Part shown: piece after piece, positions 1 through 11,159 of the stretch
Numbering within the stretch: the stretch's first letter is position 1
Layout of the letters: every line of letters begins with the position of its first letter
Source: Dehalococcoidia bacterium
GTDB lineage: Bacteria > Chloroflexota > Dehalococcoidia > SM23-28-2 > RBG-16-64-32
Assembly (NCBI GenBank): GCA_963665775.2
Contig: CAXXTF010000001.1
Coordinates: 32,001-96,000, forward strand
DNA length: 64,000 nt
Direction: 5' to 3'
Notes under the pieces: model-generated
What the model was told of the DNA's origin: nothing
The model's input: the letters and a program-made list of their open reading frames with translations, nothing else
Database searches by the model: none
Program-made: the position numbers and the translations under genes

Positions 1-25
1 CGTCTGCCGATTCCGCCACCCCGGC
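1..25 (-). tRNA. tRNA-Leu, 5' part (gene runs off the left window edge); left att junction
   Basis: Minus strand reads GCCGGGGTGGCGGAATCGGCAGACG, a Leu-type acceptor and D arm; 22 bp are identical to 7514-7535. The rest lies outside the window. Confidence 0.8.
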
Positions 26-66
26 CATATCTATATTACCGCTCTTTCTGCCCAGACTCCTTAACA

Positions 67-88
67 TTTGATCACCAAATGGTCACAA
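67..88. repeat. Putative integrase arm-type sites (left)
   Basis: TTTGATCACCAAATGGTCACAA contains tandem TG(A/G)TCAC units that match 7362-7394. Confidence 0.6.
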
Positions 89-92
89 CCGC

Positions 93-1235
93 TCAGATAC
101 TCTCTCGGACGTTGCGTAGTGAGACATCCAGCGCACGGACCGCCTCAGCCTGCAGTCCCGGGAGAACGTGGCTGTAAATGTCCATCGTGATCGCGATTCC
201 GCTATGCCCCAGACGTTCGGATACTATTTTCGGATGCACACCCTGCTGAAGCAAGAGGCTGGCGTGAACATGGCGCAGATCATGGAAGCGGAGGGGGGAT
301 AGGCCGGCCGACTTTACTGCCTTTCTGAAGGCGCGCCTGACGGCGTCTGGGTGCAGCGGCCCACCGGCGTCAGCAGCGAACACAAGGTCCCTGTCGTCGT
401 AGAGAGCACCGACCACGAGTCGACTCTCCAGCTGCTCCCTGCGATGCCGACGTAGTCGGTCAATCGTAGAGAGACCAATGGCAACGGGGCGGGCACCTCT
501 GTGGCTCTTGGGCTGGCGGAAGGTGGGGGCCTGCCTGGACAGCCACTGTAGGGCCTGCCGAACGTAGACCACACCTCCGTCCAGATCCAAGTCTTGCCAC
601 CGCAGGCCCAGCACCTCGCCCAGCCGCAGGCCAGTCATGGCAGCGGTGCGGACTAGGGGACCATGGGGCGTGGAGGCCTCTGCCGCCTCGATGAGGCTGC
701 CTACTGCCTCAAGAGTGAGCATGGGCACCTGATGGCGAGCGGGGCTTGGCGGCTCCACGGCGTCAGCGGGATTCCGTGGCAAGAGCTGCCACTTGAGGGC
801 TTGCTGGAGGGCCTCGCGCACGACCCGGTGAAGCTGGAGTACCGTCCTCGGAGCCCGGCCCCGCGCTAGAAGCTGACGGTAGCACTCTTGCATGTGCAGG
901 GGGCGTAGCTTCGCTAGGGGAAGGCTTCCCAGGTACGGGATCACGTGAATCCGCAGCAGTTCCGCATAGCGCTTCTGTGTGCTGGGCGCAAGTCTGGCCT
1001 CGCCATAATCCCGCAGCCACAGCTCAAGGTATTCCCCTAGAGTTAGCTTGCCAGGCGGGGCGTCGATGCCCTGGTCCCGCTGGTAGAGGAGCTGCGCTAA
1101 GAGGGCTTCTGCCTCTCTCTTGGTCCCTTTCACGGCGCGGCGCACTTGTCGGCGCCTTCCCGTCAGCGGGTCTTTGCCAAGGTCAATGACGACTGACCAC
1201 GACTCCTTGCCGCGCTTCTTAATGTGTCCGGCCAT
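93..1235 (-). CDS. int: Tyrosine recombinase/integrase (phage/ICE type, with N-terminal arm-binding domain)
   Basis: Catalytic motifs TGLRLGE, FHDLRH, LGHS and TMDIYSH; adjacent to the att site. Confidence 0.97.
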   Translation of the reverse strand: MAGHIKKRGKESWSVVIDLGKDPLTGRRRQVRRAVKGTKREAEALLAQLLYQRDQGIDAPPGKLTLGEYLELWLRDYGEARLAPSTQKRYAELLRIHVIPYLGSLPLAKLRPLHMQECYRQLLARGRAPRTVLQLHRVVREALQQALKWQLLPRNPADAVEPPSPARHQVPMLTLEAVGSLIEAAEASTPHGPLVRTAAMTGLRLGEVLGLRWQDLDLDGGVVYVRQALQWLSRQAPTFRQPKSHRGARPVAIGLSTIDRLRRHRREQLESRLVVGALYDDRDLVFAADAGGPLHPDAVRRAFRKAVKSAGLSPLRFHDLRHVHASLLLQQGVHPKIVSERLGHSGIAITMDIYSHVLPGLQAEAVRALDVSLRNVRESI

Positions 1236-1252
1236 GTTACCCTCCTGTCCTG

Positions 1253-2230
1253 CTATGGGGTTGTGTGCCGCTTGCGCTGTCGCCGTTGCCGGTGCCGAAG
1301 AGCGCAGCGGCTCTCACGTTCAAAATCGGCCTTAGGGCAGAATCTTTGACGCCTGTCATTGGGAAAGAAGAGCGTGCCGCAATCGAGGCACTCCCGTGTG
1401 GCACTCTCGGAAATTATGTTGGCCAGATGCCAATACGTCGCGCTAATAAGCGAATCAGAGAAGAACCGCATCCCGAATTGCGGTGATACTTGCTCGCTAA
1501 TACCCAAATAAGAATCCCCGAGGGTCCTGTTTGAACTGATTTGGCGGTAAACACCCGTTAGATTCCTATTCATTACGGACTCAATGATTTGATGAGCGAT
1601 CACCCTAGGATCGATTGTCTTGAGCTGCCAACTACACATAGCGATCGCATCGCGATCCCCGAAGACCAGGGCTGGCGACCAGTCGTTATCTGCACGTTGC
1701 TCGTATCGTTGGAGATTGACAATACGGGCATTCACTTCTGAAAATCGGCGCTTCTGAAGCAGCCTCGTGGCCACCGAATCAATTCCGAATGCTTCCACCG
1801 GCAATCGAAGACCGGTGAGATACTCTTGAATCTTCGTAGGATCACCATTCGCCAGTAATCGGCTCAGTTCCAAGACCGTTCTAATTCCATTGGCATGGGC
1901 CCAAACCCAGCCCATTGGGTCTCCACCAGAAGGCTTTATTCGGTTTCGCTGGGTGGGTTCGATGAGGTTGCTATAACCAAGAAGTCCCCACCGCCGTGCA
2001 AGCGCTGTGGCAGCTGCTTCGTCGCCCGGATGCAGCCGCCCAATTTCACCTACAGCCGGGAAGGCAGTGGCAAATAGGTATACGCGTCTCTCAATGTCGG
2101 TTGTTGGCGACATGACTCCTTCCTGAATTTGATAGTCCGCGTCCACGTACTGGAGAGAAAAGTTTCGTAGGCGACGCGCCTCGCCGACATCATCATCAGA
2201 CGGTGTTATCAGCCGATCGTTATCGGGCAT
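1253..2230 (-). CDS. Hypothetical protein with C-terminal CGNR-type zinc finger (probable element regulator)
   Basis: C-terminal CxxC...FC...C followed by an Arg-rich helix (RECLDCGTLFFPNDRRQRFCP...RCALRHRQRRQRKR); divergent from the excisionase. Confidence 0.65.
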   Translation of the reverse strand: MPDNDRLITPSDDDVGEARRLRNFSLQYVDADYQIQEGVMSPTTDIERRVYLFATAFPAVGEIGRLHPGDEAAATALARRWGLLGYSNLIEPTQRNRIKPSGGDPMGWVWAHANGIRTVLELSRLLANGDPTKIQEYLTGLRLPVEAFGIDSVATRLLQKRRFSEVNARIVNLQRYEQRADNDWSPALVFGDRDAIAMCSWQLKTIDPRVIAHQIIESVMNRNLTGVYRQISSNRTLGDSYLGISEQVSPQFGMRFFSDSLISATYWHLANIISESATRECLDCGTLFFPNDRRQRFCPKADFERESRCALRHRQRRQRKRHTTP

Positions 2231-2240
2231 GGTTTCTTCC

Positions 2241-2288
2241 TATGTAACGACAACGTAACGGTAATATATACATCTATACCGTTACATA
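2241..2288. promoter_or_regulatory. Palindromic operator in the divergent control region
   Basis: GTAACGGTA (2255-2263)/TACCGTTAC (2277-2285) and TATGTAACG (2241-2249)/CGTTACATA (2280-2288) around an AT-rich core. Confidence 0.6.
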
Positions 2289-2290
2289 TC

Positions 2291-2542
2291 ATGCCCCGAT
2301 GGTATACGATGAACGTGGAAATGTCAACATGGGAGGGGATGATAATGGAAGAAACGGGAAAAATCACCTACACAGTGGACCAATGCGCCGTTTTGCTCGG
2401 ATTGTCTCGTAATTCCACCTATGTCGCGATCGCCAGGGGCGAAATTCCTGCGCTACGCCTAGGCCGGCGCATAGTGGTGCCGAGGGCGGCGCTGGAGCAA
2501 TTGCTGGCTTCTGCGGGCAAGAAGCTGCCGGAAGAAGCGTAG
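2291..2542 (+). CDS. Excisionase/HTH_17 DNA-binding protein (true start probably 2339 or 2345)
   Basis: TYTVDQCAVLLGLSRNSTYVAIARGEIPALRLGRRIVVPR is a typical Xis-like winged HTH; GGAGGG RBS. Confidence 0.88.
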   Translation: MPRWYTMNVEMSTWEGMIMEETGKITYTVDQCAVLLGLSRNSTYVAIARGEIPALRLGRRIVVPRAALEQLLASAGKKLPEEA

Positions 2543-2546
2543 TCGA

Positions 2547-4172
2547 TTGGTCACCGAGCTTGCCGGAGTCTTATCGCGGCTTGAAGACGTCAGCAAGCCT
2601 GACGACAAAGGGTACTACCAGGCCGTGTGTCCCTTCCACAAGGAGAAGAGGACCGCCTTAGACTTGCACGCTGTGGCTGGATATAACTGCCATGGCGGAT
2701 GCGGTAGCGGATCCTTGGTGGAGCTAGAAGCACTCCTTGACCTCAGATCTCTGAGTCACAGGCTTCCAGACTGGTCGGGTATCACACCAAGGCACATCGC
2801 CGAGCTGACTGACGTGGTCCGCTTTCCTCTCACTGAATCAGGCAACGCGTCCGTGTTCGCCCACTTGTTCGGCGACGGGGTTCGGTTCCTTCACAGGCAG
2901 GGCGTAGGCGGGGCCGCAGCCGGTGACTGGTACATCTGGGATGGGGTCCGATGGGCTCGGGACGCGGTTGGCGAGGTGGTGGAGATGGCCAAGGTCGTTG
3001 GCCGGGCGAGGAGGCTAGCGGCGGACAGGATCTCCGATCCAGAGGTTGCCAAGAAGGCATGGACGGCGGCAAAGACCGCTAATGGTCGCTACGGCATCAA
3101 CGCCATGCTCGACCTTGCTCGGAGCCTGCCCGGTATCCGCCTGGCCCAAGGCTCCTTCGACCTCGACCCGTGGCCGCTGTGTGTAATCAACGGCACTGTT
3201 GACCTGAAGACAGGTCAGCTACGGGATTCCAAGCCAGAGGATCTCCTGTCCATGCAAGCCGGGGTGGCGTTTGATGCGAACGCCAAGTGTCCAACTTGGC
3301 TGAAGTTTCTTGATGAAGTGTTCTTGAGGGATCAGGAATTGATTGGGTTTGTGCAGCGGCTGGTGGGACATGCCCTAAATGGTCAACCAGCCGTTTACTT
3401 CGCTATCTTCTGGGGTCCTGGTCGAAATGGAAAGAGCACGTTTATTGGAGTGATCCAGGAGCTTCTTGGTGACTACGCTGCCCAGGCACAGATCACCACC
3501 TTCATGCCCCAACGGGCGGAGAAGGTGAGAAACGACCTGGCGCGGCTACTCGGTAAGCGCCTGGTGGGCGCAACTGAGCAGGCTCAGGGCTGGCCCCTCG
3601 ATGAGGGGGTCGTCAAGCAAGTAACCGGTGGTGATAGGGTCGTTGCCCGCTACCTGTACCATGAGCATGAGGAGAAGGTGCCCTTCTTCAAGGTGTGGCT
3701 GGCTGTCAACCATAAGCCCGAGATTGTAGATACCAGCGTAGCAATGTGGGAGCGCTTAGTTATCGTTCCGTTCCTGGCTATCTTCCTGAGGGGAGACGCT
3801 GACCTAGGAATGCGAGACAAGTTGCTGGCAGAGCGGGCGGGAATCCTGAACTGGGCCATTATAGGTTGCCTGACATGGCAGAAGGACGGCCTTAATCCGC
3901 CAAAATCTGTATTGTCTGCAACGGCTGAGTACCGGGAGGAAAGTGACCCGGTGTCTAGGTGGATCGAGGAGAGCTGTGATCTGGGCAAGGGTAAGTCGGT
4001 CAGTGCGGCCATCCTGCATGAATACTACGATCGCTGGGCGAGGGCATATGGCGAGGAGCGGATGAGCCAGAAGAAGTTCGGGACCAGACTGTCGGCCCTC
4101 GGATTTCAGCGCAGGAAAGACTCGAAGGGGTCGATCATTTACGACGGGATCGACCTGGCGATAAAGCCGTGA
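2547..4172 (+). CDS. Phage/plasmid primase-helicase, P4 family (D5_N plus SF3 helicase)
   Basis: N-terminal CPFH...C zinc motif, WDGVRW and NGTVDLKTG (D5_N), Walker A GPGRNGKST, VTGGD..ARYL. Confidence 0.92.
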   Translation: MVTELAGVLSRLEDVSKPDDKGYYQAVCPFHKEKRTALDLHAVAGYNCHGGCGSGSLVELEALLDLRSLSHRLPDWSGITPRHIAELTDVVRFPLTESGNASVFAHLFGDGVRFLHRQGVGGAAAGDWYIWDGVRWARDAVGEVVEMAKVVGRARRLAADRISDPEVAKKAWTAAKTANGRYGINAMLDLARSLPGIRLAQGSFDLDPWPLCVINGTVDLKTGQLRDSKPEDLLSMQAGVAFDANAKCPTWLKFLDEVFLRDQELIGFVQRLVGHALNGQPAVYFAIFWGPGRNGKSTFIGVIQELLGDYAAQAQITTFMPQRAEKVRNDLARLLGKRLVGATEQAQGWPLDEGVVKQVTGGDRVVARYLYHEHEEKVPFFKVWLAVNHKPEIVDTSVAMWERLVIVPFLAIFLRGDADLGMRDKLLAERAGILNWAIIGCLTWQKDGLNPPKSVLSATAEYREESDPVSRWIEESCDLGKGKSVSAAILHEYYDRWARAYGEERMSQKKFGTRLSALGFQRRKDSKGSIIYDGIDLAIKP

Positions 4173-4193
4173 GTGCCGTAGACAGCCACGGTA

Positions 4194-4283
4194 CGGAGGG
4201 TACGGATGATCGATGCGGAAAATTCCCCGGTAAAAATTGAAAATGATGGTGGGGTTTGTCGCATAAACCCTCCGTACCCTCCG
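4194..4283. repeat. Inverted repeats flanking an AT-rich spacer; putative element replication origin
   Basis: Perfect 13-bp IR CGGAGGGTACGGA (4194-4206)/TCCGTACCCTCCG (4271-4283) directly after the primase. Confidence 0.6.
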
Positions 4284-4503
4284 GCCAACGTTACCACGAC
4301 ATTTCCGTATTGGGCGGTCATTCCATCCATGGTATCTGCGAAGTCTGCTTAGCAATTGCCCAACACCACGGATCAGGATGGTCCCAGGTGGTCTTCGATG
4401 GACTGCAGCGAGCAGGTGATGGACGTGACCTTGCCCCCGAAAACGAGTCCAGGCCCAATGTTAGTAATCAGGGGTTCTGGACCAGAGAAAGGGGGCAGAA
4501 GGA

Positions 4504-4782
4504 TTGGGCAGGCAGCATCACACGGCAGAGGAGATCATCAACAAGTTGAGGGAGGCGGAGGTCGGGCTGGCTAAGGGCCTGGCTGTGCCCGAGGTCTGCA
4601 GGAAGCTGGGCGTGGCAGAGCAGACCTACTACCGCTGGCGGAAGGAGTACGGCGGCCTGAGGAGGGAGCAGGCCAAGCGGCTGCGGGAGCTGGAGCAGGA
4701 GAACCTGCGGCTGAAGAAGCTGGTAGCCGATCTCTCCCTGGACAACGCCATCCTGAAGGAGGCGGCGCAGGGAAACTTCTGA
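4504..4782 (+). CDS. IS3 transposase OrfA (HTH_Tnp_1)
   Basis: EEIINKLREAE...TYYRWRKEYGG...LEQENLRLKKLVADLSLD. Confidence 0.93.
   Translation: MGRQHHTAEEIINKLREAEVGLAKGLAVPEVCRKLGVAEQTYYRWRKEYGGLRREQAKRLRELEQENLRLKKLVADLSLDNAILKEAAQGNF
4770..4776 (+). other. -1 programmed ribosomal frameshift site G_GGA_AAC joining OrfA and OrfB
   Basis: X_XXY_YYZ heptamer in the OrfA frame, one codon before the stop; OrfB lies in the -1 frame. Confidence 0.8.
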
Positions 4783-4805
4783 GCCCGGCCAAGAGACGAC
4801 AGGCG

Positions 4806-5669
4806 GTGGTCTGGGTGCGGAATGCGTTGGGCCACGCGGTCATCTCGGAGCGCCGGGCCTGCCAGGCCCTGGGGCAGGAGCGATCGACGCAGCGACGGTG
4901 GGGTTCTCCTCCCGACGATGAAGGGAGGCTGCTGAGGCGGATGGTGGAGCTAGCGACCGAGTACGGGCGCTACGGTTACCGACGGGTGACCGCCCTGCTG
5001 CGAGAGGAGGGTTTTCGGGTGAACCACAAGCGGGTAGAGCGGCTCTGGCGGCGGGAAGGGCTGAAGGTGCCGGCGAAGCAGCCGAAGCGGAGGCGGCTAT
5101 GGCTGACCGATGGCTCCTGCGTTAGGCTCAGGCCGACTGAGCCCAACCACGTCTGGAGCTACGACTTCGTGTTTACCCGCACCAGCGACGGCCGTCCCCT
5201 GCGGCTCTTGACGGTGCTGGACGAGTTCACAAGGGAGTGCCTGGCTATCCAGGTGGCGAGGCAGATCACCAGTGATGACGTGCTGGCAGAGCTGGCCCAG
5301 CTCTTCGTCGAGCGCGGGACGCCTCGCTACCTGCGCTCGGACAACGGGCCAGAGTTCACGGCACGTGCGCTCCGGACCTGGCTAGAGCGGGTAGGCGTGC
5401 AGACTCTGTATATCGAGCCCGGGAGCCCCTGGGAGAACGGCTACATCGAGTCGTTCAATGGGAAGCTACGTGATGAACTATTGAATGGGGAGGTGTTCGA
5501 CACGGTGCTGGAAGCACAGGTCCTCTGCGAGCGGTGGCGACGGAACTACAACGAGGTGCGCCCGCATAGCGCTCTCGGCTACCGGCCGCCAGCACCGCAA
5601 GCGATCGTGCCATGGCCGGGCTCCACCGCGCCATCCCTGGAGACTACGGCGATGGCCACACTAACATAG
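4806..5669 (+). CDS. IS3 transposase OrfB (DDE/rve)
   Basis: YGYRRVTA, WSYDFV, LRSDNGPEF, ENGYIESFNG, RPHSALGY. Confidence 0.95.
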   Translation: MVWVRNALGHAVISERRACQALGQERSTQRRWGSPPDDEGRLLRRMVELATEYGRYGYRRVTALLREEGFRVNHKRVERLWRREGLKVPAKQPKRRRLWLTDGSCVRLRPTEPNHVWSYDFVFTRTSDGRPLRLLTVLDEFTRECLAIQVARQITSDDVLAELAQLFVERGTPRYLRSDNGPEFTARALRTWLERVGVQTLYIEPGSPWENGYIESFNGKLRDELLNGEVFDTVLEAQVLCERWRRNYNEVRPHSALGYRPPAPQAIVPWPGSTAPSLETTAMATLT

Positions 5670-5698
5670 CCTGTGGTAGCGTTTAGGGGGGCAGGTCA

Positions 5699-5858
5699 AC
5701 ATGACGGTTCCGGCCGCAACAGAAGCAGCACCGAATGCCCGGACGCTAGCCCTCGCACCCCTGCGATACAGGACGATGCCGCCTGCAATTCCCGCCGCAC
5801 CGGGTATGCCTATTATCGCTAGAATGACGAAGCCATTTACTTCAATGCCGAAGTCCAT
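5699..5858 (-). pseudogene. Small membrane protein truncated by the IS3 right end
   Basis: AGGAG RBS, hydrophobic ORF that runs into the IS inverted repeat. Confidence 0.5.
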
Positions 5859-6009
5859 TTGCGTTCTCCTTTGATAGGGTACGCACGGTTGAACCGCTCC
5901 TATCCCCCTAGACGGATTGCAGCGCCGAGAAGTTCCAATCCTCCGGCAACCGTTGGTCCGGTCAGGTGAACAGCCGTGACCTCAGCACATGCGCGGGTAC
6001 GGCTCACTC

Positions 6010-6080
6010 CCAGAATTCTGAAAAATCTCGAAGCGAGCCCTCTCCCCCACTCACCTCAGGAGGTCAATTGGGGACGCTTC
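6010..6080 (+). repeat. About 70-bp direct repeat, copy 1
   Basis: CCAGAATTCTGAAAAATCTCGAAGCGAGCCCTC (33 bp identical) plus TGGGGACGCTTC. Confidence 0.85.
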
Positions 6081-6084
6081 AGCC

Positions 6085-6300
6085 TCAGCGGACTAGGTCG
6101 CAGATGTCTACGCCCAGAGCCTTGGCCAGCCTCTCTAAATTGACTAGGGAGACGTTTCGCTCCCCTCGCTCAGCCGAGCTCACATAGGTCCTGTGTAGGC
6201 CAGCCCGGAAGGCCAGCTCCTCCTGGGATAGTCCACGCTCCAGCCGGAGTTACCGGAGCCGTTGTCCAAATCTCGCCTTGATATCTGTGCTCGGCGGCAT
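6085..6300 (-). pseudogene. XRE-family HTH regulator with internal TAA (not in ORF track)
   Basis: [63 protein letters not shown]; TAA at 6250-6252. Confidence 0.85.
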
Positions 6301-6402
6301 AGTAGCCCTCGTGGGGACAATGAAGGCTTGCAGCCGATGGGTCTACAGACTATAAGTAGCATACTAAGAGAAGAGCTTGATCGGACTTGGAGGTAGAGCA
6401 CT

Positions 6403-7149
6403 GTGAGGATGTTAATCTTGCCGTTGACTCTTTGGGTGGCGATGCTGGCCCTTGCGTGCGGCGAGGGGTCAGGGCCAGGACTCGAAGTCCGCGTACAGAC
6501 AGCAACTGAGACACCCATGTTGACATCAGCACCAACGCCTGCGGCCACTCCAGCTTATAACCGTTGGGGGCAAGCGGCTGTCTACGAGAATGGGTGGGAC
6601 AATGTCAAAAGCTGGTGTGACAAATCGCCTACCAGCCTCGATCCATTCCTGTTCTTGGACGATGAACGCTGTATAGAGGAGGCTATGAGATTTGACCGCG
6701 CTAGGTCGGAAGCAATTGAGTTCTTCCAAGCCACTGGGCTCTTCCTTCGCGACTTCGAAGAACTGGGGCTCGTAGATTATGGCCGGGCGAGTGCACCGTG
6801 GTCAAATCAAAACCGGGGGGAGGACTTCCTCTTGAACGGTAGTCCCGATACTCTGCCCTTGTGGAGCCTCGTACCCCCTGATTCAATATGGCAGTATGAG
6901 CCAAGCTATTCTGAGATGCTGGAGCGCTACGGCTACGGCCCTGGTCGGCCATATCCCTGGAAGGAATACGGGAGCCTGGTCGAGAGTGTGCAAGCAGATG
7001 GAGGCGGACAACGCCTGCTGTTCGACTACCCTATCAAAGAGTGTCGTGTCTGCGAGACGGTTGGCTTCTTGCGAGTGGCGTTCGTTTTCGACGCCAGGGG
7101 GCAGTTCATCGATACCCAAATTCTCCCTCTAGTTCCGCCTCGCGAGTAG
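6403..7149 (+). CDS. Putative lipoprotein, unknown function (element cargo)
   Basis: Signal peptide with lipobox LALAC, Pro/Thr linker, GGAGG RBS. Confidence 0.75.
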   Translation: MRMLILPLTLWVAMLALACGEGSGPGLEVRVQTATETPMLTSAPTPAATPAYNRWGQAAVYENGWDNVKSWCDKSPTSLDPFLFLDDERCIEEAMRFDRARSEAIEFFQATGLFLRDFEELGLVDYGRASAPWSNQNRGEDFLLNGSPDTLPLWSLVPPDSIWQYEPSYSEMLERYGYGPGRPYPWKEYGSLVESVQADGGGQRLLFDYPIKECRVCETVGFLRVAFVFDARGQFIDTQILPLVPPRE

Positions 7150-7188
7150 CCCGCGCAAGATGAAACCTGCTGGTGCCGAGGTCGATTT

Positions 7189-7258
7189 CCAGAATTCTGA
7201 AAAATCTCGAAGCGAGCCCTCCTCCCTCAAGGACCGAGTCGCCGAGTGGGGACGCTTC
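7189..7258 (+). repeat. About 70-bp direct repeat, copy 2
   Basis: Same 33-bp core and TGGGGACGCTTC box as 6010-6080. Confidence 0.85.
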
Positions 7259-7284
7259 GCGCCAGGCACCGATCCGGTTCAGGC

Positions 7285-7326
7285 TGACGACAACCTTGAC
7301 GACAACCTGGGTGGATGACGACAACC
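7285..7326 (+). repeat. Three TGACGACAACC direct repeats
   Basis: Copies at 7285, 7297 and 7316. Confidence 0.8.
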
Positions 7327-7361
7327 CGGCTGACTCTGTCAAATGCTAAGGCGTGGCGCAA

Positions 7362-7394
7362 TTGATCACAAAGTGATCACAGACTTGGTGATCA
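7362..7394. repeat. Putative integrase arm-type sites (right)
   Basis: TTGATCACAAAGTGATCACAGACTTGGTGATCA. Confidence 0.6.
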
Positions 7395-7494
7395 GCCCTG
7401 GCAGTCGGCGGTACGTGATGGTAGGCGACTCCGGCATACCAAATACAGACCGGGTCTGAGGAGGACTAGATAACATCACCTGGGACGGCTGCGA

Positions 7495-7538
7495 GCGAAT
7501 TTTAAGTCCGCCGCGTCTGCCGATTCCGCCACCCCAGC
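7495..7538 (-). pseudogene. tRNA-Leu(TAA) 5'-half fragment (right att junction)
   Basis: GCTGGGGTGGCGGAATCGGCAGACGCGGCGGACTTAAAATTCGC covers the acceptor 5' strand, D arm and anticodon arm; no T arm follows. Confidence 0.88.
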
Positions 7539-7602
7539 ACAGATACACTTCCAGCGCATTGAAGGCTATCGCGCCACAGCTACTGCCAACCCCATCCCGC
7601 GC

Positions 7603-9101: not shown

Positions 9102-11159
<2,058 letters not shown>

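Follow-up and report, generated by a model that had tools for sequence, protein, structure and literature searches.

In the first 7.5 kb of a 64,000-nucleotide stretch of DNA from a Dehalococcoidia bacterium (assembly GCA_963665775.2, contig CAXXTF010000001.1), we describe an integrative element bounded by two copies of the 5' half of a tRNA-Leu(TAA) gene. The whole stretch, referred to as the window, is G000:C1:32001-96000, where G000 is a genome of 2.35 Mb in 2 contigs that is rated 91% complete. Very probably, the element recombined site-specifically with the chromosomal tRNA-Leu(TAA) gene, and its own attachment site, attP, supplied the 5' half of the gene. Positions below are those of the window unless a contig or locus is named, and negative positions lie to the left of its first letter. 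The two tRNA copies are as follows.

-61 to 25 (C1:31939-32025), minus strand: complete tRNA-Leu(TAA) gene of 87 nt, found with ARAGORN and the Rfam tRNA model.
7494-7538, minus strand: displaced 5' fragment of tRNA-Leu(TAA), positions 1-45, found with BLAST and alignment.

The complete gene scores 57.5 bits with the Rfam tRNA model against a gathering score of 29, and of the 50 tRNA genes detected in the genome it is the sole tRNA-Leu(TAA). Positions 1-25 of this intact, regenerated gene make up window 1-25, and together with 7514-7538 they form a direct repeat with one mismatch; the original prediction, that both ends of the element carry the tRNA-Leu 5' half on the minus strand, is borne out. 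That prediction was made from the window alone, in which the left copy is cut off, and it allowed that this copy might be a fragment too; extended leftwards, the copy is a complete tRNA. Fragment and gene are identical over positions 4-40 (37 nt) and differ at two places, in each of which the gene has C and the fragment has T: position 3, which is the GCCGGGG versus GCTGGGG difference already noted in the acceptor strand, and position 41. Beyond position 45 the two sequences are unrelated. The fragment therefore ends just past the anticodon arm, as had been proposed.

The right copy is not called as a tRNA by ARAGORN or by Rfam (E<=0.1). A whole-genome BLAST search with the tRNA as query recovers it at E=2.6e-15, and the other partial tRNA copies in the genome are all of 18 nt or less, except the paralogous tRNA-Leu(CAA). 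Folding of the fragment together with its tail gives z = 0.39, with no special structure, and a 60-aa open frame (7366-7548, minus) overlaps the fragment.

The polarity of the element follows from which piece of the gene was displaced. No 3' end fragment of tRNA-Leu(TAA) was found anywhere in the genome by BLAST, so the locus does not qualify as an island of the usual kind; nor does a 3'-end duplication farther out define other boundaries, an outcome that the original prediction had named as one that would count against it. The integrase-proximal copy is intact and a 5' fragment lies upstream, an arrangement that supports an attP carrying the 5' half. Two 15-nt matches to tRNA positions 73-87, one at 2475-2489 (in the excisionase open reading frame (ORF), upstream of the gene) and an identical twin on contig 2, were considered as a 3' duplication and set aside as chance, since neither extends by even one base and the twin lies at an unrelated place.

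We compared the locus with the list of criteria given for Islander (PMC4383910). On the points in that list, the tRNA gene and its cognate fragment are in the same replicon and orientation (C1, both on the minus strand, 7513 bp apart), the fragment at 7494-7538 is an end fragment, with the 5' piece upstream of the tRNA gene, and a tyrosine integrase that is neither Xer nor integron type lies inside an interval of 7.5 kb, within the range of 2-200 kb.

The architecture of the attachment sites points in the same direction. The integrase gene (int) and the tRNA are on the same strand, with 67 nt from the int stop to the first base of the tRNA, and the elements of this architecture are given here.

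26-92, minus strand: spacer of 67 nt from the int stop to the tRNA 5' end, element DNA (from the sequence).
93-1235, minus strand: tyrosine integrase of 380 aa with an N-terminal arm-binding domain (Pfam PF00589, 1.9e-26; PF14659; PF14657).
69-86, minus strand: paired 7-mer motif, arm-type-like, 11 nt apart, 43 nt before the tRNA.
7363-7380 and 7388-7394, minus strand: paired arm-type-like motif and an inverted copy, 114 nt past the end of the fragment.

The paired motif reads GTGAYCA-N4-GTGATCA, and its two occurrences are on the same strand, inside the two ends of the element. In the window, GTGAYCANNNNGTGATCA matches only 69-86 and 7363-7380, both on the minus strand (0 expected in 100 shuffles, a descriptive statistic, as the pattern was written after the sites were seen), and these are also its only matches in the 2.35-Mb genome. 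The two genome-unique pairs look like the arm-type sites of an attP of ~250 bp. The integrase frame is open and matches PHROG 1 integrase at 7.3e-81; PF14657 is borderline at 22.2 bits against a cut-off of 22.3, and all Xer and integron NCBIfam models score far under their cut-offs for the protein encoded at 93-1235. Its translation shows the usual catalytic motifs, namely the R of box I, HxxR and the terminal Y. Judged from its sequence, the protein would be a lambda-type recombinase, with catalytic, SAM-like core-binding and arm-binding domains and putative arm sites on both sides.

The model that we favor is as follows. The attP site would carry tRNA positions 1 to ~45, preceded by ~67 nt of upstream sequence, with paired arm-type integrase sites on both sides of its tRNA copy. 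Strand exchange would occur within the 37-nt identity block (positions 4-40), and we infer that the crossover most likely falls in the 7-nt anticodon loop, with the halves of the anticodon stem acting as core sites. The original promoter region and the original 5' half would then have become the dead piece at the distal end (7494-7538). The functional gene would be a chimera of an element 5' half and a chromosomal 3' half, directly behind int, transcribed either from a promoter in the spacer with the -10-like TAATAT or by read-through from int.

Homologous integrases allow this model to be examined at other loci. The nearest homologues have 36-47% identity, and we classified their loci by the position of the closest tRNA gene; the counts without a tRNA include many loci at which the contig simply leaves no room for one.

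Genome contigs, 59 loci: same-strand tRNA no more than 400 nt past int, 14; convergent, 4; no tRNA within 400 nt, 41.
Metagenome contigs, 80 loci: same-strand tRNA no more than 400 nt past int, 22; convergent, 17; no tRNA within 400 nt, 41.

The integrases that share the layout of the window have 36-42% identity. In the 10-kb flanks of 19 loci we found no 5' fragment, and only L092 (usual layout, 3' fragment) showed a repeat; the 5' fragments were then located by whole-genome searches. All five Bradyrhizobium genomes have a fragment of positions 1-39, 100% identical, 13-20 kb upstream; G047 has a 5' fragment of tRNA-Arg(CCT), positions 1-46, 12 kb upstream; and G048 has one of positions 1-43, although the query that found it gave no 5' fragment in G049, G050 or G051 (1 of 4). 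In total, 5' fragments are confirmed alongside homologous integrases in seven other genomes. The fragment ends at positions 39-46 in all eight cases, G000 included, and the alignments of the relatives' fragments diverge right after the anticodon loop. The spacers between int and tRNA in these relatives contain paired direct repeats, GGTAGCA twice, 11-12 nt apart. On the fragment side, which was examined in two genomes (G041 and G048), the GGTAGCA pair lies 116-120 nt past the fragment, in the same geometry as in G000.

Other members of the family have the usual polarity. At L146 (tRNA-Pro) the identity block is the mirror image, covering positions 33-77, and in the genome of L064 it covers positions 24-90 and is on another contig. 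Because of this mirror block at L146, the integrase family is, on sequence comparison, one with the anticodon loop as its pivot and with members of both polarities. Two further loci were noted. G015, a relative of the same family, has the usual arrangement at the same tRNA, with a full tRNA-Leu(TAA) at C91:100464-100549 and a 3' fragment (positions 29-87) at 138769-138827, 38 kb downstream. At L204 (G047:C5:434250-434800), the displaced tRNA-Arg(CCT) fragment is preceded by an element-type spacer, with GGCAACCG twice and a TAAAAT box like that before the full gene, which suggests a tandem array of reversed-polarity elements.

To place the integrase of the window among its homologues, we used a tree of 42 rows, from which 15 labelled loci were omitted (no frame of at least 250 aa, or fewer than 300 matched residues) and in which most 'usual' polarity labels on the tips are taken from layout alone. 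The reversed tRNA-Ser integrases form one clade of 27 rows, with a Shimodaira-Hasegawa-like approximate likelihood ratio (SH-aLRT) support of 100. The integrase of the window falls outside this clade, among usual-polarity enzymes, and the tree does not fix its exact place. An approximately unbiased (AU) test does not reject a tree that unites it with the reversed clade (p = 0.262, with L166 outside the constrained group), so an independent origin of the reversal lacks support. We regard as doubtful the larger proposal that attP polarity has flipped more than once in the family, with the reversal in the window a separate one, and that the sole UUA tRNA, placed behind a copy of the -10 box of the element's excision/replication operon (CGGTAATATA), ties rare-codon decoding to regulation of the element.

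The flanks of the two tRNA copies indicate what the site looked like before integration. The 40 nearest genomes belong to other genera; the comparison of short flanking motifs was made with the tRNA-Leu(TAA) loci of 29 relatives.

7539-7560, minus strand: original upstream flank of the tRNA gene in our reconstruction, ending in GTATCTGT directly before position 1.

In many relatives, a TAnAAT box and then CGTATCTGT lead straight into position 1 of tRNA-Leu(TAA). The GTATCTGT found before the fragment is the same 8-mer, in the same place, in L040 and L047 (2 of the 29 relatives); the 8-mer of L057 differs from it by 1 and that of L048 by 2. The intact gene is preceded by GGTAATATAGATATG, unlike the upstream motif of the relatives, and the ACATTTTGTATCTAA that follows it resembles the sequence in L038, L047, L060 and L062. 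Since the flank motifs match those of relatives in this way, the original gene is best reconstructed, from sequence, as right flank plus tRNA plus left flank, with the element inserted between.

The two mismatches can be read against the same relatives, which have C at position 3 in 29/29 cases and C at position 41 in 28/29. Position 41 of the fragment is element-derived; the 3' strand of the anticodon stem is imperfectly copied in G047 as well. The T at position 3 of the fragment would more likely be a later mutation in dead sequence than a difference between attP and the chromosomal site, attB, because Logan contigs of runs X8 and X10 over the right flank (5-6 differences per 1400 bases) read C at L122 9536, which is position 3. 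In the element-holding run, X4, this base is T, as in G000.

Several points weigh against integration at this site as we describe it. The flank similarities to relatives are short motifs. If the fragment is the native 5' half, a native base would be expected at its position 3, where it has T and the relatives have C in all 29 cases; a mutation there is an extra assumption, to which the Logan contigs lend indirect support. Neither an empty site nor an attP circle was recovered. There is no synteny at either flank in the 40 nearest genomes, the right-flank 24-mer has 0 matches in metagenome contigs, and the Logan contigs show no joint across the element. A strict sigma-70 consensus scan gave no promoter upstream of the intact gene or of the fragment. 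Finally, with an insertion of the insertion sequence IS3 and two core mismatches, the element may no longer be mobile.

The search for an empty site also covered the neighboring genes. A transaldolase lies beside the fragment and is present in 33 of 41 genomes (G000 included), and at none of 29 loci is there a tRNA beside it. The tRNA-Leu(TAA) loci of the 29 relatives have no flanking protein in common with either flank in G000, and a single weak tblastn match at these loci has nothing to do with the junction. In runs X8 and X10, contigs cover the flanks (L122 1001-2004/2006 and 9494/9499-10900), with no or almost no cover of the unique part of the element (2321-6280), which is not evidence of an empty site. 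Depth in X4 is 64.5 over the element and 76-81 over the flanks, values that cannot be read as a share of cells.

Three other explanations were weighed. The first is that the 45-nt piece is a chance or recombinational remnant, such as a partial duplication or an old pseudogene, and that the integrase merely adjoins an undisturbed tRNA. The missing empty site, the two differences between fragment and gene in 45 positions and a region rich in IS3 copies able to rearrange DNA would fit such a history. It would not account for a directly oriented piece that is an exact end fragment and lies on the correct side, for a stop at the anticodon arm like that of the fragments in seven genomes with homologous integrases, or for a genome-unique paired motif inside both ends, and the relatives' upstream motif resembles the sequence before the fragment, not that before the intact gene. 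We consider this explanation improbable. Slightly less credible still is the proposal that the element first carried a whole tRNA-Leu, or had the usual polarity, and that the 3' part of the right copy was later deleted. Mobile elements often carry whole tRNA genes, and the IS3 insertion is at least one later event in this one. After position 45, however, the arm-site region follows at 114 nt, compared with 116-120 nt in G041 and G048, and ends at 39-46 in all eight cases are not expected of random deletion. Least credible of all, a mis-join of the assembly at the 37-nt repeat, with the element really located elsewhere, would suit the way in which short-read graphs break at the repeat (Logan contigs end at L122 2004-2006 and 9494-9506), but the genome is in only 2 contigs, and contigs of X4, an independent run, bridge both junctions, L122 1993-6453 running from inside the tRNA through int to the IS and 9192-9528 from the element end into the fragment.

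Under site-specific integration with a 5'-half attP, the intact tRNA would be transcribed from element DNA, since the native upstream region now lies at a distance of 7.5 kb, with a terminator-like hairpin past the fragment.

7446-7458, minus strand: terminator-like hairpin with a T-run, 36 nt past the displaced fragment (consensus match only).

The original prediction had pointed to an AT-rich stretch at about 28-40 as a possible promoter, and this stretch is present. Within it, as part of CGGTAATATA (32-41), is a -10-like TAATAT (33-38, minus strand), 8-13 nt upstream of the mature 5' end. The CGGTAATATA word occurs twice in the window, compared with 0.03 times expected, once before the tRNA and once 23 nt before the start of the excisionase gene; at L051, GGTAATATAGAGATG precedes that locus's own tRNA-Leu(TAA). 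Read-through from int is an equally possible source of the tRNA, since no terminator-like site separates the two in a consensus scan. By a crude tally over open frames with 400 codons or more, 1.4% of leucine codons are TTA, the codon that this tRNA reads, and 328 of 754 frames contain it.

The element measures 7513 bp from repeat to repeat, or about 6.2 kb without its IS3 passenger, and its G+C content without the IS is 0.57-0.58, compared with 0.62 for the window and 0.63 for the genome. Its remaining features are listed below.

1253-2230, minus strand: ORF encoding 325 aa, without a family, immediately upstream of int and in the same orientation.
2231-2290, plus strand: divergent intergenic region with the second CGGTAATATA at 2259-2268.
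2291-2542, plus strand: excisionase-like helix-turn-helix (HTH) protein of 83 aa (PF12728 HTH_17, 5.6e-12; PHROG 66).
2547-4172, plus strand: primase-helicase of P4/D5 type, 541 aa (PF08706 D5_N, PF19263, PF03288).
4426-5698, plus strand: IS3-family insertion sequence of 1273 bp (Pfam HTH_Tnp_1, rve, rve_3).
5966-6187 and 6403-7149, plus strand: two ORFs without a family.
7279-7332, plus strand: direct repeats of TGACGACAAC, three to four, close together (repeat families).

The 325-aa ORF has the lowest G+C content in the element (0.534). It has no match in Pfam, PHROGs, PADLOC or NCBIfam, and in the Atlas it falls only in hypothetical-protein clusters, with DUF6076 on 16% of one cluster. The second CGGTAATATA sits within a 9-nt inverted repeat (GTAACGGTA / TACCGTTAC). 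The excisionase-like protein scores 42.7 bits with the TIGR01764 excisionase family (cut-off 28.8) and the primase-helicase 273 bits with the TIGR01613 P4-family primase (cut-off 108.7), the latter also matching PHROG 6088 at 2.8e-116.

The IS3 copy, with orfA at 4504-4782 and orfB at 4806-5669, is inserted into the element. The same 1273-bp IS3 recurs at 22 other places in the genome: no fewer than 12 copies are full-length, with 98-99.7% identity, and there are many fragments. Contig 1 begins with one copy, and another is situated 3.9 kb to the left of the tRNA. Judging by depth, this IS3 is also highly abundant in the metagenome runs.

The ORFs at 5966-6187 and 6403-7149 match no family in Pfam, PHROGs, PADLOC, NCBIfam or the Atlas; the second (248 aa) falls only in hypothetical clusters of the Atlas, with scores up to 0.83. 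The cargo of the element gives no PADLOC match. The 248-aa ORF lies between two copies of a 38-nt direct repeat (6010-6047 and 7189-7226; 95% identical), each containing the palindrome CAGAATTCTG; the pair may mark a small cassette within the element. The word (T)GACGACAAC is repeated at 7279-7332 and recurs at 2594-2608 (the primase start) and 2245-2254 (by the excisionase promoter). The repeats at 7279-7332 and these related words are candidate iterons or sites for the excisionase, the integrase or a regulator.

Two observations concern the surroundings of the element. The transaldolase beside the fragment is one of three transaldolase-family paralogues in the genome (C1:39798-40919, C2:393950-395044 and C2:1469009-1470085) and has 58% and 43% identity to the other two. 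A c-di-GMP-I-GGC riboswitch aptamer (RF03167) lies at C1:31387-31472 on the minus strand, ~530-610 bases to the left of the window start. It shares the strand of the tRNA, which ends ~470 nt upstream of it, and scores 72.1 bits against a gathering score of 59, with an E value of 6.8e-16.

Elements of this polarity have been described before, and Zhao and Williams 2002 (J Bacteriol 184:859) reportedly dealt with integrative elements that have a reversed orientation of the target gene. Of the 3919 islands counted in Table 1 of the Islander paper, 3760 have a 3' fragment and 159 a 5' fragment, and the configuration filter set out there explicitly admits a 5' fragment upstream (PMC4383910). In section 7 of a second paper, the 5'-site arrangement is attributed to Zhao and Williams 2002 and four archaeal studies (PMC6563490); on the basis of that section and the Islander table, islands with a 5' fragment are a known minority class (PMC4383910, Table 1; PMC6563490, section 7). 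The element of the window agrees with the Islander 5'-fragment class, as far as Table 1 and the listed criteria define it, in its intact tRNA gene, upstream 5' end fragment, direct orientation, internal tyrosine integrase and anticodon-centered site. It differs from the Islander and Zhao-Williams members in its host, its tRNA-Leu(TAA) target and its divergent integrase (<=45-47% identity to anything found). The element therefore belongs to an already documented rare class and is not a new arrangement.

Close parallels are the tRNA-Ser(TGA/CGA) islands of Bradyrhizobium and other Alphaproteobacteria (L068-L084). These have a homologous integrase with the tRNA on the same strand just after int, which ends ~100 nt before it, a 5' fragment (1-39 or 1-43) at 13-20 kb upstream and, as at the window locus, paired direct repeats in the spacer between int and tRNA. 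They differ from the element of the window in integrase identity (36-38%, and a clade of 27 rows that excludes the integrase of the window), in being two to three times longer, and in their arm motif, which is GGTAGCA instead of GTGATCA. The usual-polarity islands (L146 at tRNA-Pro and L064 at tRNA-Ser) have homologous integrases too, at 38-42% identity and ~100-200 nt from the tRNA, and an identity block that begins at or near the anticodon arm. Unlike in the window element, their int converges on the tRNA 3' end and it is the 3' part that is displaced, so the tRNA keeps its native promoter.

In its contents, the element resembles P4-like satellites, with an integrase and a P4-family primase (TIGR01613), a small excisionase-type regulator, a tRNA-Leu site and a length below 12 kb. 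Unlike these satellites, it has no capsid-size, cos or helper-exploitation genes that we could recognise with Pfam and PHROGs, in a set that includes 4 ORFs without a family. P4 itself presumably uses the 3' part of its tRNA-Leu target.

What the locus adds to the documented class is a compact example of 6 kb at a Leu(TAA) target, in which the arm sites can be read clearly and a candidate promoter is present; apart from these additions, it is an ordinary case. The presence of both polarities in one integrase family provides a convenient set for asking what fixes polarity. In reversed-polarity islands, a host tRNA gene has its promoter taken over by a mobile element, and here that gene encodes the only tRNA found for UUA.

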